From Gemmatimonadaceae bacterium (GTDB taxonomy: Bacteria > Gemmatimonadota > Gemmatimonadetes > Gemmatimonadales > Gemmatimonadaceae): 64,000 nucleotides of DNA. The stretch lies in NCBI GenBank assembly GCA_036741775.1, contig DAINRQ010000030.1:477-64476 (forward strand), in the 5' to 3' direction. The notes below the pieces were generated by a model, which did not search any database, was not told the origin of the DNA, and was given only the letters and a program-made list of their open reading frames with translations. This document shows positions 38,395 to 48,435 of the stretch, piece by piece (positions within the stretch are counted from its first letter, which is position 1; each line of letters opens with the position of its first letter). Position numbers and translations under genes: made by a program.

Positions 38395-39081
38395 TCAGCG
38401 TTCCAGCGTCGCGAGCGGCGCCTCGAGTGCGTCGCGAAACGCATCGCCATTCAGGCGGTCAGGCTCGGCCCCTTCGCCCGCGCGACGCTGTACGCCCCGC
38501 ACGACCGCGTCCACAGCCGAGAGCGGTGCGTCCGCTTCCGCAACCACGTCAACCTCCCACTTGCCGCGGTCCACGCCTTTGAGCGTGAGCCGATAGCGCG
38601 CCGTGTGTACCGTGAGGCGGACATGCGCTACCGGCTCGGCTTGCACGCTCGCGTCAACGACGTCCACGGTCTCGACGACCTCCGCCACGGCGTCAGTCTC
38701 GACCGGCACATCGGTCGCGATGGCGTCTGCCTCTATGGCATCACCCGATGTGGCATCGGCTTCGACCACCGTGTCGGCATCCGGAGCGACGTCAGACAGC
38801 ATCTCCTCCTGCGCCGCGAATGCCTCGGCCTCCGGAGAGTCCGCCGCCAGGGCCGGCGCGAATTCAGGATCGATGTACGTCGCGTCGCTCGCCGATGGCG
38901 CCTCCGTACCGTTCGCCGCCGCGGGGCTCGCGTCGAGCACTAACGGCTGCTCCGCGACGACCGCTACCCCGGTCTCCACACCACCCTGACGGATGGCCGG
39001 GAACAGGTGCACTTCGACCACCCGCTCCTTCGGCACTCGCTCGGCGATCGCGCGCAGGAAACGCTGTTGTGTCTCGGTCAT
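38395..39081 (-). CDS. hypothetical protein with an acidic Ala/Asp/Glu/Val-rich low-complexity centre
   Basis: High GC3 frame. ATG 39081 overlaps the upstream stop (ATGA). No family recognised. Confidence 0.6.
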
Positions 39082-40238
39082 CCCGCCACCGCTGCGGACC
39101 GGCCGGACGCCAGTCCCGTCGCGCGACCGTCCAGCTCACGTTCCACGAAGAGCCGCAAGATGTGCATGAAGTCCTGAGCGTTGGTAACGACGCCGAACGC
39201 CTGGTGCGTCCCGCGATCCTTGAGCTTCCCGACGACGAACTCCGCCGAGTCCACGCAGATGGTCGGAAGCTCGCGAAGCGTTCCATCGGGATCGGCGACG
39301 AACGCCGGGAGCATGTTGCCAGTGGCAATGGCGTGCAGCGCCGTGGCGATCATGATCGCCATCGTCGCGCGAGCGGTGTGCGCCTTCATCGCGTCCTGCG
39401 CGGCCGACATGTCGGTGTACACGTCAGGCAGCGGACCATCATCGCGAATGGAGCCGCAGAGCACGAACGGCACGCCCTTCCGGACGCACGCGTGCATGAT
39501 GCCGTCGGTAATGACACCCGCTTCCACCGCGCGCTGAATGGACCCGGCCGCCCTCACCTTGTTGATCGCGCGCATGTGCAGGCCGTGCCCGCCGACGGTC
39601 GTCTCACCGCTGCCCGACATGCCGAGCGTCGTGCCGAAGATCGAGGCCTCGATGTCGTGAACGGCGACCGCGTTGCCGGCGAGCAACGCGCTCACGAAGC
39701 CGTTCATGATGAACCACGTCATGTCGGCGCGCGCGCGCGAGTGCACGAGCGCCGGCCCCGTCACCCACACGATGTAGCCACCTCGCTCCCGCTCGTCGAT
39801 CAGCATTCGCGCGAGGTGGACGTAATCCACGGGCTTCTCGCGCGACACCTCGCTGGCCATGAACTTGAACTCGCCGTCGTCGTTTCGCGCGGCAACCTCG
39901 GTGTGGACGAAAATCCCCTCGGTGCCGTCTTCCTTCTTCCCCACAGCGACGAGCTCGCCGGCCTTCACGCGACGCATCTCGCGAACCCAGAGCTCGCCGT
40001 TCGCGTCGAGCACGAGCGCGGCGTCCATCCGCGGCTCGTGCGGCAACGTCCACTCGCCACGCACACGGACGTAGGTGGGAAGGTTGGTCGTCGAGAAGAA
40101 GTCCTCGGGCAGCACGCCGTCGGCCGGCGCGGGCACGAATTGCGCGTCGGGCGCGCTCACCAGGCGGGGCGCGCTGAAGTCGGGAGGCGGTATGATCGGC
40201 ACGATCGAAAGATGCCTGACGGGCGTAGCTCGGGCCAA
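39078..40238 (-). CDS. LOR/SDH conserved-domain (TIGR00300-like) protein
   Basis: [14 protein letters not shown]...[11 protein letters not shown]...[16 protein letters not shown]... recalls the TIGR00300 / saccharopine-dehydrogenase-N-like family. Assignment is from memory only. Confidence 0.45.
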
Positions 40239-40361
40239 GCCCCGGCCTCGGGTGATTCTTTCCCGACAGCCCGTCGGGGATCAACCCCCTGTCATCCGAC
40301 AGTCCCCGGCCGCAGACTGCACCCTGATACCCCTTCCCCACCGGATCCGCGGAGGCCCCGA

Positions 40362-42347
40362 ATGCCATCCATCGCCCGTTACGCTCGCCGGGCCGTCGTC
40401 GCGATCGTCGCGGCCGGCTTCGCTCCCGGGATTGGCGCGGTCGCCCTGGCGCAGCCGACTGTGCAGCGCGACAGTGCGCTCGTGGCGCGCCGAGACTCCC
40501 TCGAGCGCGAGCTTCAGCGCATTGCCGTCGTCGAGCGGAAGCTCATGGTGCCCATGCGTGACGGCGCGCGGATGCAGTTCGACGTCTACCGCCCGAAGGA
40601 GGCCGCCGGACCGGTGCCGGCGATCTTCGTGCGAACGCCGTACAACATGAACTTCTGGGACGTGCAGCTCCGCGCGCCGGCGGACATGAGCGCTCAGCTC
40701 GAGGCGGTGAAGCGTGGGTACGCCTACGTCGGCGCGAACGAACGGGGCCATTTCTTCTCCGAGGGCAACTACGACATCCTGGGTCCGCCGGTCACGGATG
40801 GCGTGGACGAGATCGAGTGGATCGCGTCGCGGCCCTGGTCGAACGGCAAGGTGGGGTTGATCGGCTGTTCGTCCACGGCCGAGTGGCAGATGGCCGTCGC
40901 CGCGCAGGGCCCGCGGGGGTTGGGCACGATCATCCCCCAGGGGTTCGGCGCAGGGGTCGGACGCGTGAAGCCCTACTACGAGCAGGGGAACTGGTATCGC
41001 GGCGGCGCGGTCCAGCAGCTGTTCATCAGCTGGTTGTACGGCCAGCAGAACCAGGTACGGCCGATGTTCCCGCCGAACACGCCGCAGGAGGAATTGATTC
41101 GTGCGGCGAAGTCGTACGACCTCGCGCAGCGACTACCGCCGGTGGACTGGGCGAAAGCGTTCTGGCATCTACCGACGCAGGACCTCATCAAGGCAGTGGA
41201 CGGGCCACGGGGGATCTTCGCCGACTCGATGCCGGGCATCGCCACCGGCGGCGCGATGATCAAGCGCACGCCTAACGACTCGGCGTGGTATCGCGGGGGG
41301 CTCTTCCACGATGACATGAAGATCAACGTGCCGGGGCTCTGGATCATGACCTGGTACGACGTGTCGGTCGGGCCGAATCTCGCGACGTACAACCACGTGC
41401 GGCGCACTGCCGACTCCGCGGTCGCGAATCAGCAGTACGCGGTCATCGCACCGACGCTGCACTGTGCGCAGCGGCGGGCGACCGAGAACACGGTTGTCGG
41501 GGAACGCAGCGTCGGCGACGCGCGCTACGATTACGACGCCCTCACCTACGGCTGGTTCGACCACTTCCTCAAAGGGAAGGACAGCGGGCTGCTCGATACG
41601 ATGCCGAAGGTCCGCTACTTCACCATGGGCTCGAACAAGTGGCAGACGTCGGACACGTGGCCCCCCCGCGGCGCGCAGCCGATGACGTTCTACCTCTCGA
41701 GCAACGGCAGCGCGAACACGCGGAACGGCGACGGCGTGCTGACGACGCGGCTGCCGGCGCGCGATCGGCCCGACACGTTCTCGTACGACCCGAAGAACCC
41801 GGTGCCGTCGCGCGGAGGCAACGTCTGCTGCCAGGGCAACGCGGTGTCGGGCGGCGCGTTCGATCAGCGAGAGATCGAGCTGCGTCCCGACGTCCTCGTA
41901 TACACGACGGAGCCGCTGAAGGAAGGACTGGAGGTGTCCGGTCCGATCGACGTGACGATCTATCTCTCATCCGACCGAAAGGACACGGACGTCACGGTGA
42001 AGGTGCTCGACGTCTATCCCGACGGCCGGGCGTACAACCTCGACGAGACGATCCAACGCGTGCGCTACCGCGAGGGGTACGACAAGCCGCCGACGTGGAT
42101 GGAGCCAGGCAAGGTGTATAAGGTCCAGTTGCAACCGATGACGACGAGCAACTGGTTCGCGCCCGGTCACCGCATCCGGATCGAAGTGTCAAGCTCGAAC
42201 TTTCCGCGATTCGACCGCAACCTCAACACGGGCGGCAAGAACTACGACGAGGTTACCGGGCTCGTGGCGAAGAACAGCATTCACCACTCGAGGCAGTATC
42301 CGTCGCAGATCACGGTGTCCGTGGCAAAGAAGCCACCGGCGATGTAA
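40362..42347 (+). CDS. CocE/NonD-family hydrolase (peptidase S15, X-Pro dipeptidyl-peptidase-like), secreted
   Basis: ATG 40362 with GGAGG 6 nt upstream. Signal-like [17 protein letters not shown]; [17 protein letters not shown] (nucleophile elbow) and [14 protein letters not shown]. The 1199-aa track ORF is an out-of-frame upstream extension. Confidence 0.75.
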
Positions 42348-42424
42348 ACGGGGTCAGAGTCGAATATCATCGTTCCGTTGCGGCCGCAACGGAACGATGA
42401 TATTCGACTCTGACCCCGTTTACA
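42343..42424. repeat. perfect 82-nt palindrome centred on GCGGCCGC; probable bidirectional terminator
   Basis: tgtaaacggggtcagagtcgaatatcatcgttccgttgcggc | gccgcaacggaacgatgatattcgactctgaccccgtttaca. I checked every position from 42343 to 42424 as complementary. It contains the TAA of the S15 hydrolase gene and the TAA of priA. Confidence 0.9.
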
Positions 42425-44672
42425 GCAGGCTCACCGGATCGCGATCCAGCGCAACGCGGAGCTGAGCCCGATCCTTCGGCACGGCAAGGCGCTCGACGAG
42501 AAACCGGCACGCGCGCGTGAGCAACGCCGGGTTCGCGCACTTGAGCAGGAGGTGCCACCGCCAGCGCGTCTTCACCCGCTCGATGGGACAGGGCGCCGGC
42601 CCGACGACCGTGATCTCGTTCCCATACCGCGTGATCGCCTTGCGCAGCCGAGTCGCCGCCGTCATCGCGAGCTGCTCCGTGTCGCTCTCGCGCAGCCCCG
42701 AAAACACCACGTTCGCGAGACGCGTGAGCGGCGGGTACAACGGGTCCGCCCTGCCCTCCATCTCCTCCTCGACGAACGACGCATAGTCGTGCGACACGGC
42801 GCACTTCACCGCGTGATGCGACGGGACGCGGGTCTGCACGAGCACGTGCCCCCCCTTCGGGCCGCGCCCCGCACGGCCCGCCACCTGGCTCAGGAGCTGG
42901 AAGCACCGCTCGGACGAGCGGAAATCGGGAAGGTTGATCCCCACGTCGGCGTCGATCACGCCCACGAGCGTCACGTTCGGGAAATCGAGCCCCTTCGCGA
43001 TCATCTGCGTGCCGAGGAGCACGTCCACTTCCCCGCGGCCGACGCGGTCGAGGATGTCGGCGTGCGCCCACTTCCCGGTGGTCGTGTCCACGTCCATGCG
43101 TGCCACCCGGGCTGACGGAAAACGCTCGGCGAGAAGACGTTCCACCTGCTGGGTCCCGAGACCACGGCGGCGTAGCGTCTCGCCGTCGCAGCGACGGCAC
43201 CGCGGTGACGGCTCCTCCTTGTGAAGACAGTAGTGACACACGAGACGCTCGGGCATGCGATGGTACGTGAGCGAGATCGTGCAATTCGGGCACGTGGACA
43301 CTTCACCGCAGTAGCTGCATTGCACAAACGACGCATACCCGCGCCGATTGAGGAGCAGAATGCTCTGCTCCGAGCGCGTGAGGCGATCACGCAGCGCGCT
43401 CTCGAGCTCGTCGCTCACGACGAGACGGAACGGATCGGGCGGCGCGCTCGACGCCGCGCGAGCGGGGCCACGCATGTCCACGACGTCCACGCGCGGGAGC
43501 TGGCCGCCACCAACGCGGTCGGGCAACGAGAGGCGCCGGTACTTCCCCCCTTCCGCGTTGCTCCAGCTCTCGAGGCTCGGCGTCGCACTCCCGAGGACGA
43601 CGACCGCGCCTTCCTGCCGTGCGCGCACGATCGCGACCTCGCGCGCGTGATACCGCGGCGACTCGCCCTGCTTGTAGCTCCCCTCGTGCTCTTCGTCCAC
43701 GATGATCGCGCCGACGTTCCGGAGCGGCGCGAAGATGGCCGAGCGTGCACCGACGGCAATGCGTTTCTCGCCGCGCCGTAGTGCGAGCCACGCATCGTAG
43801 CGCTCGCCGTCACTGAGCGCCGAGTGTAGAACGGCGATCGAGTCACCGAAGACCTGGCGGAAGCGATCGACCGTCTGCGGCGTAAGCGCGATCTCCGGCA
43901 CCAACACAATCGCCGTCTGGCCGCGCTCCCGCACGACGCGCTCGAGCACCTCGATGTACACGAGCGTCTTGCCGCTGCCCGTGATTCCGTGAAGCAGGAA
44001 CACCTCTCCCGGCGAACCGGACGTTATGGCATCGACGGCGCGCTGCTGGTCACGCGTGGGGGCATGACGCCGCCCGGTCAGCGGCGCCCGCAGGGCAAAG
44101 GGGTCACGCGTGACGATCTCGTCGTCGACCGTCACCAACCCGCGGGCCACGAGCCCCTTGAGCACGGACGGCGAGAAGCTCAGCTGCTCGACGAGGTGTT
44201 CCACCGGAGATCTACCCCCGAGCGACTCGAGCAGCTCGAAGAGCGCGCGCTGTTGCGGTGCCCGGGCGAAGATGCGGTCCCGTCGCATGAGCGACGGGAG
44301 CTCGGCCACGATGGTCGCCACGCGCCGCGTCTTCTGCGACGGGGTCGGCGTATCCGCACCCGTGAGCAGCGTCGGCAGCGCGCAGCGTAGCGCGATGCCT
44401 AACGGCACAACGTAGTACGACGCGATCCACCGGCAGAGCTCGAGCATCGACCCGTCGATGGCGGGCTCGGCGTCGGGAACGTCGGCGACCGGCTTGTAGT
44501 GTCGCGTTGGGTCAGTCGGCTGGGAGAAGCCGACGCAGACGCCGATCTCCTTTCGATTCCGGAACGGCACGAGCACGCGCGTGCCGGGGACGATCGCGTT
44601 CGCGAAGTCCTGGTCGACCTGGTACGAGAACGTGGTGAAGAGCGGGAGTGGTAGCGCGACTTCGACCAGCAC
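42420..44672 (-). CDS. priA: primosomal protein N' (replication restart helicase PriA)
   Basis: Walker A GITGSGKT, DEEH box, Zn-binding CxxC repeats (CSYCGEVSTCPNCTISLTYH...CHYC...CRRC). Start set to GTG 44672, one nt after the epimerase stop. Confidence 0.9.
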   Translation of the reverse strand: MLVEVALPLPLFTTFSYQVDQDFANAIVPGTRVLVPFRNRKEIGVCVGFSQPTDPTRHYKPVADVPDAEPAIDGSMLELCRWIASYYVVPLGIALRCALPTLLTGADTPTPSQKTRRVATIVAELPSLMRRDRIFARAPQQRALFELLESLGGRSPVEHLVEQLSFSPSVLKGLVARGLVTVDDEIVTRDPFALRAPLTGRRHAPTRDQQRAVDAITSGSPGEVFLLHGITGSGKTLVYIEVLERVVRERGQTAIVLVPEIALTPQTVDRFRQVFGDSIAVLHSALSDGERYDAWLALRRGEKRIAVGARSAIFAPLRNVGAIIVDEEHEGSYKQGESPRYHAREVAIVRARQEGAVVVLGSATPSLESWSNAEGGKYRRLSLPDRVGGGQLPRVDVVDMRGPARAASSAPPDPFRLVVSDELESALRDRLTRSEQSILLLNRRGYASFVQCSYCGEVSTCPNCTISLTYHRMPERLVCHYCLHKEEPSPRCRRCDGETLRRRGLGTQQVERLLAERFPSARVARMDVDTTTGKWAHADILDRVGRGEVDVLLGTQMIAKGLDFPNVTLVGVIDADVGINLPDFRSSERCFQLLSQVAGRAGRGPKGGHVLVQTRVPSHHAVKCAVSHDYASFVEEEMEGRADPLYPPLTRLANVVFSGLRESDTEQLAMTAATRLRKAITRYGNEITVVGPAPCPIERVKTRWRWHLLLKCANPALLTRACRFLVERLAVPKDRAQLRVALDRDPVSLL

Positions 44673-44673
44673 G

Positions 44674-45720
44674 TCAGCCGTCGTACGCGGCAGCCGCGTC
44701 CCTGCGCGTGACGCCGAGGCCGGGCGCCTCGGGAAGGACGATCGTGCCGCCGTCGATCGTCGCGCCGACGAAGGGGTCGTGCGCAAGCAGCGCCGCCCCA
44801 TCAAGGTCCGCGTAGTCGAGCAGCGCGGCGAATTGCGCCGCCGCCGTGATGCCGAGACTCGTCTCGACCATGCAGCCCGCCATCACCGACATGTCGTGCG
44901 CGCGGGCGGCCGCGATGATCCTCAGCGCTTCGCGAATCCCGCCACACTTCGCGAGCTTGAGGTTGATCCCGTCCACGGCCCCGGCCAGTCGCGGAATGTC
45001 AGTAGCCACGAGGCAGGATTCGTCAGCGATGATCGGGAGTGGCGATCGGTCGCGAACGAATCGGAGTCCCTCGATGTCATGCGCCGCAACAGGCTGCTCG
45101 ACGAACTCGACGTCGTAGTCGAGGAGCACGTCGATCATGTGCAGGGCATGTTTGGGCGTCCACGCGGCATTCGCATCCACACGGAGAATCTTATCCGGCG
45201 CGGACGCACGGACGCCGGCAATCGTGTCCGCGTCTCGTGGGCCTCCGAGCTTGACCTTGAGGACCGGGTACGGCGCGGCGTCGTCGAGCGCGCGGCGGAG
45301 GGCGTCGTCGTCGGCCGTGATCGGGATCGTGAAGCTCGACGGCGGCGCCTTCGCCGGATCGAGCCCCAGCATCCGGTGCAGCGCGACGCCGAGCCGTTTG
45401 GCGGCGAGGTCGTGGAGGGCGGCGCTCACCGCCGCTTTCGCGGACGCGTTGTACCGAAGCGTGCGGTGCATCTCCGCCTCGATTGCCTCGAGCGACCACG
45501 CGTGTGCCTCGGCCAGCACCGGCGCGAGCCGATCGAGCGCGGCGATGACGGTTTCCGTCGTCTCGCCATAGAATCGGCTCGGCGCCGCCTGGCCCCACCC
45601 TTCCGCTCCATCGTCGTCGACGACGCGTACCCAGACCAGACGCCATTCGCTCGACCCGCCGCGCGCGATCACGAACGGGGTCCGCGTGCGCACGGTGACG
45701 ATCTCGTGGAACAATCTCAT
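44674..45720 (-). CDS. dipeptide (L-Ala-D/L-Glu-type) epimerase, enolase superfamily
   Basis: KVKLGG..., RVDANAAW, VEQP, IIADES and LKLAKCGG follow the MR/MLE-family pattern. The specific substrate is inferred from cell-wall recycling genes elsewhere in the window, not from adjacent genes. Confidence 0.7.
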   Translation of the reverse strand: MRLFHEIVTVRTRTPFVIARGGSSEWRLVWVRVVDDDGAEGWGQAAPSRFYGETTETVIAALDRLAPVLAEAHAWSLEAIEAEMHRTLRYNASAKAAVSAALHDLAAKRLGVALHRMLGLDPAKAPPSSFTIPITADDDALRRALDDAAPYPVLKVKLGGPRDADTIAGVRASAPDKILRVDANAAWTPKHALHMIDVLLDYDVEFVEQPVAAHDIEGLRFVRDRSPLPIIADESCLVATDIPRLAGAVDGINLKLAKCGGIREALRIIAAARAHDMSVMAGCMVETSLGITAAAQFAALLDYADLDGAALLAHDPFVGATIDGGTIVLPEAPGLGVTRRDAAAAYDG

Positions 45721-48335: not shown

Positions 48336-48435
48336 TCAGTCGGGAGTCGTCAGTTCCCAGTCATCCAGTCGTGAGTTCGGAGTACGTACTCACAACTCAT
48401 GACTGGATGACTCGGGACTGATGACTGCCGACTCA
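48336..48435. repeat. ~100-nt imperfect palindrome made of AGTCNNN heptads
   Basis: AGTCGGG AGTCGTC AGTTCCC AGTCATCC AGTCGTG AGTTCGG AGTAC | GTACT..., then the inverted complement, centred on gtac|gtac at 48385/48386. About 40 of 50 positions pair. Sits downstream of the HDAC-family gene. Confidence 0.8.

Follow-up and report, generated by a model that had tools for sequence, protein, structure and literature searches.

A perfect 82-nt palindrome at a peptidase–priA junction in a Gemmatimonadaceae genome is one copy of a dispersed hairpin repeat

The closest described systems are genes resembling those of the repetitive extragenic palindromic (REP)-associated tyrosine transposases (RAYTs) that lie between long terminal inverted repeats (TIRs), many of which carry the motif GGGGWSAS and some of which overlap the gene end, the TIRs being dispersed as singles, dimers and groups as well (Di Nocera 2013, PMC3733652). 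This TIRYT class corresponds to TnpA-REP subclass 2.1 and to RAYT Group 1; its proteins are long and carry a C-terminal extension that resembles helix-turn-helix (HTH) domains (Bac_DnaA_C, HTH_23 or HTH_28), and its TIR reads GGGG[AT][CG]A[CG] (Quentin 2018, PMC6006769). REPINs, in turn, are defined as inverted repeated seeds no more than 130 bp apart that form a hairpin (Bertels & Rainey 2011, PMC3116915; RAREFAN, 10.1101/2022.05.22.493013). Here we analysed a 64-kb stretch of DNA (hereafter the window; G000:C30:477-64476) from a Gemmatimonadaceae bacterium whose genome, G000, is a metagenome-assembled genome (MAG) of 7.24 Mb with 67% GC, 263 contigs and 92% completeness, and six congeneric genomes (G001-G006) were used for comparison. 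In this window, a perfect 82-nt palindrome fills the space between a peptidase gene and the convergent priA gene. This palindrome is one of the dispersed copies of a hairpin repeat with GGGGTCAGAGTCGAATATCATCGTTCCGTTGCGG arms of ~34 nt joined head to head, and it is very probably a non-autonomous repeat of the REP/REPIN-TIRtron type, the inverted arms of which bracket the genome's single intact Y1/HUH transposase gene (RAYT/TIRYT).

The junction palindrome and its repeat family

The palindrome and its parts occupy the following positions in the window:

42343..42424, no strand: perfect palindrome of 82 nt (41 + 41), from the sequence and a repeat finder
42350..42417, no strand: repeat-family core of 68 nt (GGGGTCAGAGTC...GACTCTGACCCC), two family-A arms joined head to head
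42350..42383, plus strand: left arm, beginning GGGGTCAG and fitting the published TIRYT TIR motif GGGGWSAS
42384..42417, minus strand: right arm, the exact reverse complement of the left arm
42346..42349, plus strand: left 4-nt flank AAAC (family consensus AATY), from logos and flank lists
42418..42421, plus strand: right 4-nt flank GTTT, also present in the sister copy on contig C15

According to the repeat finder, the two halves (42343-42383 and 42384-42424) are 100% complementary with a spacer of 0 nt around the centre GCGGCCGC, which, together with the sequence itself, bears out the perfect and uninterrupted 41 + 41 nt symmetry reported in the first-pass annotation of this DNA. The GC content of the palindrome is 51.2%, compared with 64.5% and 67.8% in the 1 kb on either side and 68% in the window; the initial estimate of about 51% was accurate, while that of about 70% for the surroundings was slightly high. 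Folding yielded -79.1 kcal/mol for the RNA (z-score -13.7) and -52.4 kcal/mol for the DNA (z-score -15.6), and in both cases 0 of 200 shuffled sequences were as stable. The palindrome carries no T-run on either strand and no intrinsic (Rho-independent) terminator was called there by the terminator scan, in line with the earlier remark that it lacks a T-tract and is not a textbook terminator. Besides, the sole Rfam match at the palindrome site, to a viral CRE, scored 25 bits and is attributable to chance, the threshold of that family being 100 bits.

No second copy of the palindrome lies within the 64-kb window, as had been stated at first pass, though the genome as a whole holds many. BLAST of the 82-mer against its own genome gave 80 matches, and the core GGGGTCAGAKTC, allowing at most one mismatch, has 407 genome matches compared with 64 in a reversed-genome control. 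The arms form two subfamilies, both beginning with GGGGTCAGA, namely family A (...TCGAATATCATCGTTYYNNNNGC) with 148 arms and family B (...TCCTAACGCATCG...) with 143. Tight hairpins number 64 (41 A-A, 22 B-B and 1 mixed) and span 66-75 nt from GGGG to CCCC with a mode of 68 nt, while ~66 A arms and ~98 B arms lie outside them. Conservation reaches 4-5 nt beyond the GGGG (AATY in family A, CGTWA in family B) and then ends. The family was found in five of the six other genomes of the genus, and in none of 34 genomes from other genera of the same family and order. The first-pass emphasis on one remarkable locus is thus not supported by the genome BLAST and the arm scan, as the palindrome is not locus-specific. 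A functional site that evolved in place, such as a protein-binding or replication signal tied to priA, would agree with the perfect symmetry and with the adjoining replication-restart gene, but it is refuted by the copies dispersed genome-wide beside unrelated genes and by the lack of the element at the same junction in five congeners, and we regard its probability as negligible.

Other repeats were seen in the course of these analyses. The AGTC-heptad palindrome at 48336-48435 of the window belongs to a different family from the junction palindrome, and in G001 (L058, G001:C185) a heptad-type palindrome occupies another convergent spacer. Single family-B arms head a GC-rich, non-palindromic repeat of ~190 nt (G000:C27:41737-41930, C74:8464-8643 and at least 20 other places), on which Rfam gave nothing credible. 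In addition, BLAST of the family-B region revealed another high-identity repeat family of ~47 nt (G000:C27 ~42039-42085 and at least 10 other contigs).

The Y1/HUH transposase and the flanks of the repeat

The sole PF01797 (Y1_Tnp) match in the genome (C1:46552-46878, E = 3e-12) sits between inverted family-A arms at C1:46209 and 47104, which are 896 bp apart. The open reading frame (ORF), hereafter RAYT-A, encodes 234 aa (G000:C1:46216-46917) and its TGA stop lies inside an arm. It matches Pfam Y1_Tnp at 1.6e-12, and its best NCBIfam match is REP_Tyr_transpos (REP-associated tyrosine transposase, 7e-19). In sets of 10 and of 40 homologues, neither the HSH motif (residues 60-62) nor Y120 of YRYIELNP varies. 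A phmmer search of the PDB with the single RAYT-A sequence gave no match at 0.01, and a profile of 10 genus paralogues identified E. coli TnpA-REP (4ER8) as the best PDB match with 2.8e-5. Likewise, 4ER8 was the best fold match of the RAYT-A AlphaFold2 model (pLDDT 81.5; E = 2.4e-8, TM 0.72) and ranked ahead of the IS200, IS608 and ISDra2 transposases. Both the alignment and the model indicate a conserved, mostly helical C-terminal extension of ~95 residues. RAYT-A therefore shares with TIRYTs a Y1/HUH RAYT-like gene, the HUH motif with a catalytic tyrosine and GGGGTCAG arms on both sides, and the transposase probably belongs to Group 1/subclass 2.1 rather than to Groups 2/3.

The association between arms and transposase extends to the whole genus. 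Inverted GGGGTCAGA-type arms (GGAGTCAGA in G006) bracket nine of the ten full-length RAYT paralogue loci, and each bracketed paralogue carries its own arm variant; at one full-length locus of G005 (L038), no bracketing arms were found by the scan. Outside the genus, the RAYT clade was present in 2 of 120 other Gemmatimonadota genomes sampled, while metagenomes contain more than 8000 homologues, some of them named REP-associated tyrosine transposase and thousands of them 60-70% identical, and one Acidiferrobacterales protein is 59% identical. This combination of near-absence in the phylum sample and thousands of metagenomic homologues suggests that the genus acquired the RAYT horizontally.

Further RAYT-like genes were observed next to other repeats. 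In G000, a second one (C135:4039-5393; L043 1128-2482) lies between inverted family-B arms; it is 51% identical over the C-terminal 85 aa, a 100-N scaffold gap takes the place of its 5' part, and the ~190-nt repeat headed by family-B arms also occurs directly 3' of this remnant (L043 ~1780-1900). Intact paralogues are present in the congeners. A third paralogue (~50% identical) in G004 (L041, G004:C108) and G005 (L042, G005:C263) is flanked by tandem small hairpins CAAGGGGTCAGAGCCCTTGA, which look like canonical REP stems built around the same GTCAGAG core, and a RAYT of G006 (L037, G006:C20) is flanked by GGAGTCAGACTCGAGTCTGACTCC arms that share the AGTC periodicity of the heptad palindrome in the window.

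The sequences beside the arms bear on the type of transposition. Of the informative flanking 4-mers, 20 were inverted and none was direct, and apart from the palindromic AATT no other offset showed an excess. In the window copy, the left 4-nt flank is mirrored on the right side, which is not a target-site duplication. A duplication of TA or of another target site was tried as well; it fits the window copy (TA...TA) but not the sister on C15, and was rejected family-wide. An origin of the left flank from the target and of the right flank from the element fits the C30/C15 pair and a G003 site reading TAATC, while other empty sites read TAG.

With arms of ~34-38 nt that begin with GGGG and occur in inverted pairs, and with AT-rich flanks of 4-5 nt adjoining them, the family could be taken for a miniature inverted-repeat transposable element (MITE) of a DDE transposon with TIRs, for example a Tn3-family miniature element moved by a DDE transposase, since the ~38-bp inverted repeats of the Tn3 family also start with GGGG. 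However, the flanking 4-mers show no target-site duplication and distant arm pairs enclose ordinary genes and no transposase, which together speak against a DDE-type MITE. Moreover, the bracketed gene is a Y1 transposase at nine of the ten full-length RAYT loci and at the partial G000 locus. We therefore hold a DDE-type MITE to be highly improbable.

Gene 3' ends, arm symmetry and turnover

Hairpin placement was assessed with genes from a GC-frame ORF caller and is hence approximate. Between convergent genes lie 27 of 51 hairpins, compared with 18% genome-wide (p = 2e-8), and between divergent genes only 1 of 51, compared with 18% expected (p = 5e-4). Facing gene ends are within 30 nt of the hairpin in 66 of 86 cases, and TAA accounts for 36 of 66 adjacent stops versus 15% genome-wide (p = 7e-14), the form TAAnnGGGG being found at 17 family-A ends. 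At no fewer than three loci, including the junction in the window, both stops fall within the flanks of the element. A like 3'-end bias is known for REPs, the termini of which can supply the stop codon (Di Nocera 2013, PMC3733652). The genes and stops at the junction are as follows:

38748..42347, plus strand: gene of the S15/X-Pro dipeptidyl-peptidase family, 1199 aa (Pfam Peptidase_S15 2.2e-39, PepX_C 1.2e-51)
42420..44804, minus strand: priA (primosomal helicase), 794 aa (Pfam PriA_3primeBD, DEAD, PriA_C, Zn_ribbon_PriA)
42345..42347, plus strand: TAA stop of the S15/PepX-type peptidase gene, straddling the repeat edge
42420..42422, minus strand: TAA stop of priA (plus-strand TTA); congeners end the gene at this codon as well

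The ORF ends at 42345-42347 and 42420-42422 confirm the first-pass reading that the palindrome makes up the entire intergenic space with both TAA stops inside. The peptidase C-terminus reads ..PPAM* in G000 compared with ..PAADN* in the congeners G001, G002, G004, G005 and G006. In the same five genomes PriA ends with ..SLL* at the same codon and the stop is TAG or TGA; in G003, where a repeat copy is also present, the priA stop is TAA.

The hairpins are exceptionally symmetric. The first-pass annotation had considered that the palindrome might turn out to belong to a common dispersed REP-like family with ordinary imperfect copies; the dispersal is real (64 hairpins and ~160 single arms), but the copies are not ordinarily imperfect, since 35 of the 64 hairpins are perfect. 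Over all stems, 2020 positions are paired versus 26 mismatched, and G:T pairs number 8 among 2046 stem positions. At the same time, 60 of the 64 hairpins have distinct sequences. With 31 copies aligned gap-free, pairing holds for 95% of cells and drops to 31-46% once the partner is slid. Change is two-sided in 25 of 38 pairs, with 157 double-changed cells versus ~12 one-sided ones, and many of the double changes are transversions, for which there is no wobble route. The four central nucleotides are self-complementary in 21 of 40 even-length copies versus a background of 9.5%; when each distinct apex is counted once the figure is 16 of 32, and for distinct central 4-mers it is 6 of 17. Between G000 and G003, the C15:77595 locus differs at five positions per arm, all of them mirrored with both stems perfect, and the differences at C22:69607 are mirrored too. 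Loop symmetry and the scarcity of G:T pairs suggest that one arm is copied from its partner at the DNA level, or that whole copies are replaced; if an RNA stem were the sole target of selection, such symmetry would not be expected.

These data also bear on the view that the family is immobile and maintained by the host, with hairpins selected as RNA 3'-end structures and the transposase irrelevant today. The strong bias towards 3' ends and convergent spacers, the near avoidance of divergent (promoter) spacers and the very stable RNA hairpin are what such a role would lead one to expect, and REPs have been reported as mRNA stabilisers and transcription barriers (Di Nocera 2013, PMC3733652; Quentin 2018, PMC6006769). 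Against it, G:U pairs are nearly absent, many transversion double changes have no wobble route, and the symmetry continues into the loop, where RNA cannot pair; besides, identical copy pairs and presence/absence differences between 90%-identical species speak for recent turnover at the DNA level. Host maintenance of an immobile family thus appears improbable, while an RNA-level side function is compatible with a mobile repeat.

Synteny at the S15-priA junction extends to all six congeners. G001, G002, G004, G005 and G006 have other spacers of ~19-125 nt without a copy of this family. In G003 (~90% identical to G000), a family-A palindrome of a different variant (..ATGCGAATATCATCGTTTCGCCGCGGCC..) abuts the priA TAA, and the contig breaks within it. 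The comparison of priA 3' regions that had been proposed at first pass thus revealed absence from five of the six congeners and another variant in G003. The window copy is identical over 75 nt to G000:C15:29612-29686, with the 68-mer core at C15:29615-29682, whereas the G003 ortholog of this sister site holds a different variant at a slightly shifted position. In addition, the G000 copies C16:21027 and C35:29604 are absent from G003. The identical sister and the presence/absence differences indicate recent turnover, with convergent spacers as recurrent landing or replacement sites, and different palindromes repeatedly occupy the spacers of convergent genes in the genus.

In view of the C15 sister, the five congeners without the element and the arms that change together, the original notion of recent origin or active maintenance was a fair one. 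The accompanying argument that SbcCD-type nucleases render such palindromes unstable is weak for 82 bp, as severe palindrome instability in E. coli concerns palindromes much longer than that; an SbcD_C domain was not found in the 92% complete G000 genome.

Several side observations concern the same spacers and copies. An unrelated palindrome of ~90 nt lies in the S15-priA spacer of G002 (L028, G002:C483), and another hairpin (GGAAGGAGGCC...GGCCTCCTTCC) in that of G006 (L025, G006:C16). Between G003 (L060, G003:C51) and G000:C35:29604, synteny stops exactly at the repeat, where G003 reads ...GACACGCTAATC followed by unrelated sequence, so that a rearrangement breakpoint coincides with the element.

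Since contigs of these MAGs frequently break at family repeats, including the G003 contig at the same site, and G000 itself consists of 263 contigs, an assembly artefact, either a fold-back chimera or a false contig join at a repeat, was considered. A fold-back would duplicate one flank in inverted orientation, whereas the palindrome joins two different genes, the adjacency and convergent order of which are kept in G001, G002, G004, G005 and G006. Furthermore, the independent assembly of G003 has a family-A palindrome at the same priA stop, and the architecture recurs 64 times in G000 and in five other genomes. A scan of metagenome contigs for the exact junction gave 0 matches and hence no independent assembly of the same species. 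Taken together, we judge an artefact to be extremely improbable.

By analogy with E. coli TnpA-REP, which cleaves and rejoins REPs, the transposase would act in trans on the single-stranded hairpin and move or copy the dimers. An insertion directly at the priA stop may go back to the shared ancestor of G000 and G003, or the present variant may have replaced an earlier one. The insertion would have removed the old spacer together with the last two to three peptidase codons, so that both genes now end at TAA triplets formed at the element edges. Both convergent mRNAs would then end in the same very stable hairpin, each with its stop codon at the stem foot, and this shared hairpin should block 3' exonucleases and read-through. 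Its perfect symmetry would be kept by arm copying at the DNA level, be it fold-back, hairpin-templated synthesis during mobilisation or whole-copy replacement, and not by stem selection alone.

We tentatively speculate, while thinking it somewhat more probable that this is not so, that the mobilisation chemistry itself makes the symmetry, with each dimer regenerated from one arm at a self-complementary centre. Fold-back or hairpin-templated DNA synthesis could take place at a short GGCC, CGCG, GCGC, CATG, GATC or GTAC centre. Regeneration from one arm would account for the loop symmetry, the ortholog differences that are exclusively mirrored, the near-absent G:T intermediates and the apices that are hypervariable yet palindromic. 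If true, this would show how single TIR/REP units turn into REPIN-type doublets, a question left unanswered in earlier work (Bertels & Rainey 2011, PMC3116915; Di Nocera 2013, PMC3733652), and it would reveal a Group 1/subclass 2.1 RAYT driving a large doublet population.

Several observations weigh against the assignment to a transposase-mobilised repeat of the REP/REPIN-TIRtron type. A single family-A arm folds no better than shuffled sequences (z-scores 0.04 and -0.12), and the arms carry no GTAG/CGTC tag (family-A flank AATY, family-B flank CGTWA); the element is for these two reasons not a canonical REP. Family-B arms do form a small hairpin (CGTTAGG/CCTAACG, z-score -2.2), with no GTAG tag either. 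About 160 arms are single and unable to form a hairpin. With 68 bits, the NCBIfam REP_Tyr_transpos match of RAYT-A stays below the 80-bit equivalog cut-off, and no HTH Pfam family was detected in the RAYT C-terminal extension at E <= 1. As to the origin of the flanks, one G003 empty site already reads TAATC and others TAG. Finally, replacement by other copies, instead of an intrinsic symmetrising step, could be the reason why the arms change together.

Significance and comparison with known systems

For annotation, the palindrome and the ~220 arms related to it are to be treated as a repeat family and not as unique regulatory sites, and many of the contig breaks in these MAGs are accounted for by such repeats. 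With recurrent TAA stops at their edges, the repeats reshape gene C-termini, and at this junction the peptidase lost or changed its last two to three residues. Besides, a large population of hairpin doublets is now paired with a TIRYT-type (probably Group 1/subclass 2.1) transposase, a class described as lacking REPINs, and this in Gemmatimonadota, a phylum absent from the surveys consulted (Di Nocera 2013; Quentin 2018). The spacer-less, loop-symmetric dimers and their mirrored divergence between species constitute a clean natural data set on arm identity.

Compared with enterobacterial and pseudomonad REPs and BIMEs, the family is likewise extragenic and downstream of genes, favours convergent or co-directional neighbours and has termini that sometimes supply the stop (Di Nocera 2013, PMC3733652). 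In contrast, its stems are perfect over 34-38 bp instead of imperfect palindromes of 20-40 nt, and the supplied stop is TAA and not TAG.

With the IS200/IS605 family (IS608, ISDra2), the system shares the catalytic fold and motifs and the lack of target-site duplications, and the conserved 4-5 nt beside the element end may act as a cleavage or target tetranucleotide. Unlike in that family, the transposase gene is single-copy and not multiplied, and both ends consist of the same sequence in inverted orientation, not of distinct left and right hairpins.

Operationally, the window element is a REPIN, being a head-to-head arm dimer. Inverted doublets shorter than 130 bp form hairpins, are over-represented and extragenic, and are better conserved than singlets; the single-copy cognate RAYT gene is flanked by the same repeats, the population is diverse (60 of 64 distinct) and confined to one genus-level lineage, and changes across the hairpin are compensatory, as in REPINs (Bertels & Rainey 2011, PMC3116915). 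Nevertheless, the family-A units are not small palindromes and have no GTAG tag, and the arms join without a spacer, whereas P. fluorescens REPINs have spacers. Cognate RAYTs of REPINs are expected to be close homologues of the E. coli Group 2 or P. fluorescens Group 3 RAYT, defined by tblastn e < 1e-30; to the Group 2 enzyme the present RAYT shows no more than a distant relation (4ER8 profile 2.8e-5).

Among the systems compared, TIRtrons/TIRYTs share with the present one a Y1/HUH gene within inverted GGGGWSAS repeats, one of which overlaps the gene 3' end, a protein longer than E. coli TnpA-REP with a conserved C-terminal extension, dispersal of the TIRs as singles, dimers and groups, and a patchy taxonomic distribution. 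Differently from these, the family is large and has two subfamilies, while TIR families were described as 'moderately abundant', and its dimers are spacer-less and mostly perfect palindromes; RAYT Group 1 was described as being without REPIN populations, whereas 64 dimers occur here. Gemmatimonadota are not mentioned in either account (Di Nocera 2013; Quentin 2018). The palindrome is thus an element of a known kind that stands out by unusually clean features, namely the missing spacer, the symmetry of the loop and the TAA-bearing edges.

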